A stretch of 63,840 nt of DNA, counting the filler, from Aduncisulcus paluster (Eukaryota): NCBI GenBank assembly GCA_024181965.1. It is 12 parts of 12 records of this genome, joined end to end, with 100 filler letters (N's around TTAATTAATTAA, not from the genome) between each part and the next. Parts side by side here need not be neighbours in the genome. Positions count along the whole stretch, not along the records: positions 30,951 to 34,232 come from BQXS01011377.1; 11 more parts are not named here. The stretch is one strand, 5' to 3'. How positions within the stretch are numbered: position 1 is the first letter of the stretch; each line of letters opens with the position of its first letter. The notes below the pieces were generated by a model. It made no database searches, was not told the origin of the DNA, and saw nothing but the letters and a program-made list of their open reading frames with translations. This document shows, in pieces, positions 33,198 through 34,232 of this stretch. Both the position numbers and the translations under genes were made by a program.

Positions 33198-33860
33198 ATG
33201 CCACCAAGACGCATAAGAAATGCAAGAAAGGAAGATGAAGCTGAAGAAGACTCTCAAGCAGAAGAAGAATCCGAAGAATCGGAGAAGCAGCCCGACGTCG
33301 CAACAAACTCGCAGCCGGGCACAGACAACCAAGACGTGGCAAAAGAAGAACCGGAAGAACAGGATGAATCACTCTTGGAAGCCATGGTCAGGCTTCAACG
33401 CCAGGTGCAGCTACTGCAAAAGAAGGACGCTAGACGCGCCCGATCCATCTCAAGGTTCGGCGAAATTGAACTTAGTAGGCTGGATAAGCTTCAAGAATCG
33501 GTCATCCAAGCTCTCGAAGGTTCAGAGGACTTTTCATCTGCCCTTGAAGAAGTGTCCCTGTCCTTCAAGGCCCAAGAGACTGCCATTACAGTCGCTGATA
33601 TGCTCAGGAGAGCAGAAGCCTACCAGATCGCCTTTGACGTGGCCTCCCAGTTCCCATCACGCACCACGGAGCACATCGCTGAGATTGTCGCTCGTCGCCT
33701 CCCCCCAAAGAGGGAGAGACCACCAGGAAAGGCAAAACCTGGCTGGAAGAAGTCCTCAAAGACGTCAGGAAGCTTCTCGAGGTCCTCATCAGAAGAAAAA
33801 CCTCTCAAATGCTCGAAATGCGGTAAATTCCACCGCAGTAAGGAGTGTCCTTTTCAATAA
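33198..33860 (+). CDS. Gag-like protein with C-terminal CCHC zinc knuckle
   Basis: ATG 33198; acidic N-terminus, coiled coil, CSKCGKFHRSKEC. Confidence 0.75.
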   Translation: MPPRRIRNARKEDEAEEDSQAEEESEESEKQPDVATNSQPGTDNQDVAKEEPEEQDESLLEAMVRLQRQVQLLQKKDARRARSISRFGEIELSRLDKLQESVIQALEGSEDFSSALEEVSLSFKAQETAITVADMLRRAEAYQIAFDVASQFPSRTTEHIAEIVARRLPPKRERPPGKAKPGWKKSSKTSGSFSRSSSEEKPLKCSKCGKFHRSKECPFQ

Positions 33861-34232
33861 TCCCCACGCGAGTAAAGGACCCAATTTCTATTACAAACAC
33901 TCAGAACTCTTGCGTGGGGAGTATGTCAAGACACTGGAAGGCATGGGAAGAGGAGGGGGCGACACACACTGTTGTGGAGTGGCTCAGAAGAGGCGTAAAG
34001 CTAAATGTCTCCTCACGATCAATAATCAAAGGGAGAAAGACACCATCCGACCCAGTGATTATACTAGAATTGGCCAAAATGGAGAAGGCCGGAGTATTGA
34101 CAAAGACAAGTACAGCACCTATAATCACAGCACCATATTTTACAGTACCAAAAGCGGGCACAACAGAACTCAGACCCGTACACGATCTGCGAGCGTTAAA
34201 CAAGCGGTTGGCTTACCTCCCATTCAGACTGA
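33842..34232 (+). CDS. Reverse transcriptase N-terminus, in the -1 frame relative to gag
   Basis: FTVPK..RPVHDLRALN RT motifs; frame opens only after TAA at 33839-33841. Confidence 0.85.
33848..33920 (+). promoter_or_regulatory. Predicted -1 ribosomal frameshift signal: T_CCT_TTT, 6-nt spacer, 12-bp stem
   Basis: Heptamer 33848-33854 in gag phase; TCCCCACGCGAG (33861-33872) pairs with CTTGCGTGGGGA (33909-33920), one G-U pair. Confidence 0.7.

Follow-up and report, generated by a model that had tools for sequence, protein, structure and literature searches.

A candidate −1 programmed frameshift cassette between the gag-like and reverse transcriptase frames of a DIRS-like retrotransposon in Aduncisulcus paluster

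Results

The plus strand of one contig in the genome assembly of Aduncisulcus paluster (GCA_024181965.1) carries the start of a DIRS-like retrotransposon, in which a gag-like frame and a reverse transcriptase (RT) frame meet at a candidate −1 programmed ribosomal frameshift cassette. The stretch of DNA that we analysed, the window, is 63,840 nucleotides (nt) long and is a chain of 3-14 kb contigs, joined by linkers of the form N44-TTAATTAATTAA-N44; all positions given here count along it. The contig that holds the gag-pol junction spans positions 30951-34232 and is followed by such a linker (34233-34332), beyond which the DNA belongs to an unrelated contig. The visible part of the element stops at the contig end, 374 nt past the shift site, so that 130 codons of the RT frame are all that is present; the recombinase, methyltransferase and terminal repeats, which define the DIRS order, would fall beyond that point, and the cassette is known from this one truncated copy. 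An earlier sequence-only reading had called the cassette complete, a description that holds for the cassette and fails for the element that contains it.

The first open reading frame (ORF1) occupies positions 33198-33860 and consists of 220 codons followed by a TAA stop. Its predicted product is acidic at the N-terminus, helical in the middle and basic in the tail, and near its C-terminus it carries a zinc-knuckle-like motif, C-X2-C-X3-H-X4-C (33810-33848), which Pfam zf-CCHC did not match and in which X3 stands where X4 is usual. Pfam held no family for ORF1, a search for relatives among 5.8 billion proteins (689 candidates) yielded none but the window's own protein, and a comparison with the N-terminal extension of protein P0008 found no similarity (E 2.5). 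A single-sequence AlphaFold2 (AF2) model was helical and of low confidence, with a mean predicted local distance difference test score (pLDDT) of 62.7 and a predicted template modelling score (pTM) of 0.28; the knuckle region reached a pLDDT of ~80. The nearest Atlas clusters among language-model neighbours carry zf-CCHC or Retrotrans_gag (scores 0.78-0.82) and serve as leads only. As neither a Pfam family nor relatives were found, the name gag is an assignment by position, composition and knuckle, and it is in this sense that we call ORF1 gag-like.

The second frame, −1 relative to gag, is open from position 33842 to the contig end at 34232. An exhaustive HMMER search of this piece against 1.84 billion representatives gave 26 matches at E <= 1e-3, the best of them (P0002) at E 1.1e-15 with 44% identity; another of the 26, P0025, proved to be a spurious bacterial repeat protein. 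RVT_1 was found in 14 of the 15 relatives scanned against Pfam, and RT-RNase H domains in several; six of the 15 matched a Dam-like methyltransferase at E <= 1e-3, two of these above Pfam's own cut-off. When the pol piece was compared with "longer" proteins, none of the 205 candidates scored. Judged on the first 130 residues only, the frame belongs with the RT/RNase H proteins of the DIRS lineage, and a pol composed of RT, RNase H and methyltransferase has been described for DIRS-type elements (PMC3266345, PMC3783388; here and below, papers are cited for the parts of their text available to us). To judge from these relatives, the sequence-only reading was right to see in the −1 frame the N-terminus of a DIRS-type reverse transcriptase.

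The N-terminus of pol follows a conserved pattern, VVGS-M/L-S..W..W...GA...VV.WLR.G. In the window, the codons V-G-S-M lie at 33914-33925, with V-G-S at 33914-33922 and the first ATG of the pol frame at 33923-33925; conserved coding sequence (VVGS, 33914) in this frame, which opens at 33842, is thus encountered before any ATG in it, in agreement with the earlier proposal that the first ATG lies downstream of a conserved VG motif. Among 22 aligned relatives, 15 have [VIP]-G-[SRC] immediately before the position of this Met. Of the 26 relatives that tblastn matched to the window, 20 have alignments that reach into DNA upstream of 33923. The ATG at 33923 is the ninth of the mRNA if the gag start is taken as the first, with seven others between the two, and leaky scanning to it is therefore unlikely. 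The conserved RT motif starts 24 codons after the shift site, too short a distance for a protease to fit in between; absence of a protease is a trait of tyrosine-recombinase (YR) retrotransposons (PMC3783388).

The gag and pol frames overlap by just 19 nt (33842-33860). The gag frame terminates with TGT CCT TTT CAA TAA, the stop codon lying at 33858-33860, and because a TAA at 33839-33841 closes the pol frame on the upstream side, any shift must happen downstream of it. All three forward frames are open at 33842-33857. The overlap offers four in-phase positions for a heptamer, and one of them is taken by the candidate slippery sequence U_CCU_UUU (33848-33854). Its zero-frame codons are CCT and TTT, so placed that the A- and P-site tRNAs could both re-pair after a −1 slip, with a G:U pair at position 1; its first base is the third base of the last Cys codon of the zinc-knuckle-like motif. 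A 6-nt spacer (33855-33860), which includes the gag stop, separates the heptamer from a stable hairpin. The Y CCU UUU class is a documented −1 site, known from the Japanese encephalitis group of flaviviruses, and spacers of 5-9 nt are printed for such sites in the same source (PMC2657137), which bears out what the sequence-only reading had stated of them. Its coordinates for the stop codons, overlap, heptamer, spacer, stem and loop were likewise correct.

The hairpin (33861-33920) pairs 33861-33872 with 33909-33920 around a 36-nt loop (33873-33908), its 12-bp stem being made of 11 Watson-Crick pairs and one G-U pair. It was both the minimum-energy and the centroid structure in contexts of 71, 113 and 241 nt, with an energy of −20.4 kcal/mol on its own. 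The segment 33855-33925 folds at −22.0 kcal/mol against a mean of −11.0 kcal/mol for dinucleotide shuffles (z −3.91), none of 200 of which was as stable. A check for a pseudoknot, as the sequence-only reading had suggested for this region, turned up no convincing second stem: the best helix between the loop and downstream sequence has 7 bp, includes G-U pairs and reaches −2.9 kcal/mol, and was rejected on those grounds. A search of the contig (30951-34232) with Rfam gave no match at E <= 1. The 5' arm makes use of minority codons of the element, namely CCC (4 of 22 Pro), ACG (3 of 20 Thr) and CGA (4 of 30 Arg), a weak hint of selection on the RNA.

We estimated from the window itself how often such an arrangement arises by chance. 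Stems of 12 bp (at most one G-U pair, loop of 3-60 nt) begin at 23 of the 63,840 positions on the plus strand and represent about 10 separate helices. A survey of both strands for canonical X XXY YYZ heptamers plus T_CCT_TTT (n=460) found a stem 5-9 nt downstream of at least 8 bp in 22 cases, of at least 10 bp in five and of at least 12 bp in two, the last being the gag-pol site and a site at 36519. These counts give chances of ~1.4% for the heptamer and ~0.2% for the stem, and a joint chance of the order of 1e-5 to 1e-4. The anatomy of the cassette thus fits a canonical −1 frameshift site and is unlikely to have come about by chance. The other site (36519-36573, plus strand) consists of AAATTTA followed by a stem of 36533-36544 with 36562-36573, and lies near the 5' end of a SUI1/eIF1-like ORF (36496-36879).

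The arrangement of frames was compared with contigs from two public sequencing runs, which come from one sample and are possibly the assembly's own data. Both runs have contigs that match 33339-34232, and neither a differing letter nor an indel is listed there; the arrangement of the frames is thus no error peculiar to the assembly of the window. Over the wider interval 33071-34232, too, the run contigs list no other letters, indels or joints. No RNA data set is on record as carrying this sequence. In addition, the standard genetic code applies: 17 N-free host ORFs, from 23 examined, end in TAA (7), TGA (6) or TAG (4), and an alternative code with TAA/TAG as Gln was rejected on the basis of these stops.

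A third frame, +1 relative to gag, is open over 337 codons on the plus strand from an ATG at 33220 to the contig end at 34232 and spans both gag and pol. Its ATG follows the gag ATG by 22 nt and carries, at −3, a G in place of the T found at the gag ATG. The frame stayed open in none of 5000 codon-order shuffles and none of 5000 synonymous resamples, under which 7.8-8.9 stops are expected. Each half is significant alone, the gag half being open in 158 and 38 of 20000 trials and the pol half in 113 and 359 of 20000; the remaining alternative frames hold 14 and 9 stops. The part of the third frame that is present gave no family or Atlas match. A long ORF overlap of the recombinase ORF has been reported in half of 28 DIRS1-like elements (PMC3266345, in part), and a long ORF overlapping pol is what we find here. 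The third frame is probably the long 5' extension of a DIRS1-like recombinase ORF, which in this element also overprints gag.

We looked for further copies of the element inside and outside the window. Inside it, blastn of 32951-34232 found only itself, and tblastn of 30 stored proteins hit this locus only. Among metagenome contigs, an alignment of the window with P0002 gave 63 pattern matches, none of which was confirmed, and a sister-group alignment gave two loci, one of which (L002) has just 260 nt upstream. The other (L001, 4701-4919) is a bacterial-looking contig with efflux-pump and TetR-like ORFs that ends in a 35-residue match to a DIRS-type RT N-terminus (80% identity to P0022), and it is most likely a chimeric assembly. 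Two scans of viral contigs confirmed nothing; a third gave four loci of ~8-11 kb at 21-25% identity, including one 32-residue match at 50%. Prokaryote genome contigs gave no match.

The run contigs extend the element itself. One of 3655 letters (run X1) runs from 33071 to 34232, continues for 2372 further letters and then follows 32980 to 33100 in the same orientation, its two ends overlapping by 30 letters; another (run X2, 3240 letters) extends 2346 letters beyond 34232. The element thus continues ~2.4 kb past the contig end and closes on itself with a period of ~3625 nt, which indicates a direct terminal repeat, a tandem array or a circle, and fits split direct repeats of the PAT/Ngaro-like kind, or tandem copies, better than the inverted repeats of DIRS1-type elements. 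Run contigs over 33003-33339 have ~3x the word depth of the contig over 33339-34232, depth not being copy number, and a single-letter variant near 33090 occurs at 2:1. Taken together, closure, depth and variant suggest that the first 47 gag codons are part of a direct terminal repeat or of tandem copies. A perfect palindrome of 18-20 nt with the core CCACTCCGATCGGAGTGG lies at 33110-33129, ~70-90 nt upstream of the gag ATG.

The same runs contain a fragment of what seems to be a divergent sister family. A contig of ~388 letters from run X2 matches the window only at 33914-33960, the stretch that codes for VVGSMS..W..W, and its collinearity with the window persists for 30 more letters on the 3' side.

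A gene on the minus strand adjoins the element. In one run contig, position 33071 directly adjoins a stretch with the same letters as 32937-32966, and the 104 nt that are skipped (32967-33070, minus strand) begin with GTATGT, end with CAG and contain a TACTAAT box. It seems that a minus-strand transcript starts within the 5' region of the element, antisense to it, and splices (33071|32966) into the neighbouring gene at 31358-32966. The minus-strand frame is open across this joint, and a minus-strand ATG at 33199-33197 overlaps the gag ATG. Farther into the gene, 32649-32721 (minus strand) holds a tandem repeat of 36 nt at 37-nt spacing with 86% identity, situated where the gene changes frame between the ORFs 32685-32978 and 31358-32725; the repeat could be a frame-breaking duplication, an intron or an assembly slip.

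Discussion

Programmed −1 frameshifting from gag into pol is known in retroviruses and in many long terminal repeat (LTR) retrotransposons, and the cassette described here is a candidate new instance, with a heptamer of flavivirus type in an orphan family of the DIRS order. The best explanation of the locus is that it represents the 5' third of a compact retrotransposon of the tyrosine-recombinase type (DIRS order), a class assignment drawn from the N-terminus of the RT. For the junction itself, −1 programmed frameshifting that yields a Gag-RT fusion is the best explanation, to which we assign a probability of about 0.55. At U_CCU_UUU, a ribosome translating ORF1 would have its P site occupied by tRNA-Pro, paired with CCU, and its A site by tRNA-Phe, paired with UUU; at that moment the 12-bp hairpin, 6 nt downstream, would stand at the mRNA entry channel. 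A fraction of the ribosomes would slip one base back, with UUU re-pairing to UUU and the P-site tRNA moving from CCU to UCC with a G:U pair at its first position, the same re-pairing as has been set out for Y CCU UUU in the Japanese encephalitis group (PMC2657137). Those that slipped would go on to translate pol, giving a Gag-RT fusion joined at ECPF-SIIPTR, and the unslipped ones would terminate two codons later. Of the original claim that RT is made in this way, the anatomy, the rarity of the hairpin and the identity of the RT stood up to analysis, and slippage itself stays a prediction from sequence; we infer that slippage occurs, and its efficiency and the function of a fusion in an element type that has no protease are inferred with it.

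Several points weigh against this explanation. YR retrotransposons have no protease, so the processing that retroviral fusions usually undergo would not be open to a fusion here. The heptamer departs from the canonical form at position 1 (U, not C), and the stimulator is a plain hairpin with an open 36-nt loop, no pseudoknot having been found. Many relatives have predicted pol proteins that start 8-40 residues before VVGS, which may reflect the choice of the gene caller. No second copy was found in the window, and the searches of metagenome, viral and prokaryote-genome contigs turned up nothing that aligns with the element at the DNA level. In the sister family, the 30 letters upstream of the shared stretch are unlike the hairpin loop and 3' arm; the hairpin is therefore not conserved in sequence there. 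Moreover, these 30 letters, if their frames are read correctly, appear to hold an ATG of the pol frame that precedes VVGS by nine codons and shares bases with a TGA of the gag-equivalent frame; on this thin evidence, a stop-start arrangement is possible in that family. Finally, the literature on YR elements, as far as the cited portions go, describes overlapping ORFs without frameshifting (PMC3266345, PMC3783388, PMC5633606, PMC7192593, PMC6681497, PMC8547959).

The main rival explanation is that Pol is made separately, either by reinitiation at the AUG at 33923 after the gag UAA or by internal or near-cognate initiation within 33845-33914; the hairpin would then act in packaging, pausing or dimerisation, or have no role at all. 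In none of the three frames does an ATG occur after the gag stop and before 33923, 62 nt downstream, so a rescanning subunit would start there, and it is at this very Met that the predicted protein of the closest relative (P0002, MSRHW) begins. A start at this Met (M28), however, would drop the conserved VVGS, and the hairpin would lie in the path of the scanning subunit. Separate synthesis has parallels in LINE-1 ORF2, hepadnavirus P and foamy-virus Pol, none of which is produced as a Gag fusion although the frames overlap or adjoin; against it counts that eukaryotic ribosomes normally reinitiate very inefficiently once they have translated a frame of 220 codons. The sister family seems to have ATGA, a classic stop-start arrangement, within the 30 letters concerned, and an element type without a protease has no means to free Pol from a fusion (PMC3783388, in part). 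Separate synthesis nevertheless leaves the in-phase heptamer, the 6-nt spacer and the rare stable hairpin unexplained, and we consider it rather unlikely, though it deserves to be weighed seriously.

It is also conceivable that the junction is no working signal, the copy being decayed or rearranged, the frame offset a fixed lesion, and the heptamer and hairpin coincidental or of use in cDNA synthesis or packaging. A single truncated copy is visible, the searches yielded no relative at the DNA level that would show conservation, and the locus seems to have been disturbed, in that the minus-strand neighbour overlaps the 5' region of the element and may itself be broken by a 37-nt duplication. 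Against this stand three long frames that are intact at once, a sign of an element that was functional until recently, given that no shuffle of 5000 left the third frame open; run contigs that carry the element on for 2346-2372 letters past the contig end and back into its 5' region; and the low joint chance of heptamer and stem (1e-5 to 1e-4). We give decay little credence. Less credible still is another kind of recoding at the same place, by which ribosomes would move from gag into the third frame (−2) or from the third frame into pol (+1). Such routes have in their favour that 33842-33857 is open in all three frames and that −2 shifting on C-CUU-UUU in Trichomonas vaginalis virus 1 is backed by a junction peptide (PMC3622925, in part); with only four U's, however, the A-site tRNA-Phe would have to re-pair on CUU here, which makes a −2 shift unlikely. 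No signal of the +1 type was seen, and the third frame needs no recoding because its own ATG at 33220 is in better context than that of gag.

The proposed −1 site resembles several known systems and differs from each. The −1 sites between gag and pol of retroviruses and LTR retrotransposons, such as U UUU UUA plus a hairpin in HIV-1, share with it a heptamer near the end of gag and behind the zinc knuckle, a short spacer, a stable hairpin and a pol without a start codon of its own, and the predicted product would again be a Gag-Pol fusion at a set ratio. In contrast to retroviruses, this element type has neither a protease nor a DDE integrase, RT follows directly, and the fusion would not be cleavable by the element; the first base of the heptamer departs from the X XXY YYZ form, and the site is known here from sequence alone. 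The NS1' site of the Japanese encephalitis group combines Y CCU UUU with a spacer of 5 nt and a pseudoknot that compensatory changes support (PMC2657137). To the extent that this source describes it, that site and ours belong to the same heptamer class (Y = U, with G:U at position 1), have similar spacers (5 and 6 nt) and are followed by a GC-rich helix, whereas ours has a plain 12-bp hairpin with a 36-nt loop, is known from a single copy and lies at the gag-pol junction of a retroelement, not within a viral polyprotein.

Similarly, the element shares with the DIRS order, as portrayed in the consulted parts of PMC3266345, PMC3783388 and PMC6681497 for DIRS1-like, PAT-like and Ngaro elements, a compact unit in which ORF1 is followed by RT without a protease. 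Its RT N-terminus is nearest to RT-RNase H proteins, some of them with a Dam-like methyltransferase, and a long extra frame runs over pol; a CCHC-type motif, moreover, has been noted in ORF1 of some YR elements (PMC6681497). The direct orientation in which the run contig closes fits less well with the inverted repeats of DIRS1, and the element departs from DIRS-order elements as there described in that the extra frame also covers nearly all of gag. Trichomonas vaginalis viruses, according to the sections of PMC3622925 at hand, make a capsid-polymerase fusion by frameshifting within a 14-nt overlap; this documents that frameshift recoding works in at least one metamonad. As in our element, a very short overlap pins the shift to a U-rich slippery motif and the product joins a structural protein to a polymerase; unlike our element, these are double-stranded RNA viruses, with a −2 shift (TVV1) or G-GGC-CCY (TVV2-4). 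A full-text search of the literature on YR retrotransposons found no frameshift signal described, older DIRS1 and Ngaro papers that may discuss one lying outside its scope, and a search for DIRS retrotransposons of metamonads returned one unrelated preprint only.

A more speculative model gives each of the three frames a gene. Gag would start at the weak AUG at 33198; the next AUG, at 33220, would open the frame that overprints gag and pol, so that leaky scanning would give access to a frame of ~1000 codons, probably ending in the recombinase; and pol would be reached solely by the −1 slip, with the heptamer and hairpin, placed where all frames are open, setting the ratio of Gag to a Gag-RT that would work uncleaved, without a protease. 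We regard this full scheme as quite unlikely. If true, it would be the first expression logic described for an element of the DIRS order.

How overlapping genes are expressed in YR retrotransposons is not settled, the overlaps having been described without a mechanism in those parts of the literature that we cite. The cassette, confined as it is to 19 nt, is a directly testable case of a Gag-RT fusion against separate initiation, and if the fusion is real, it must be asked how RT can function while joined to Gag in an element that has no protease. For genome annotation, the RT ORF of such elements should not by default be given the first ATG as its start.

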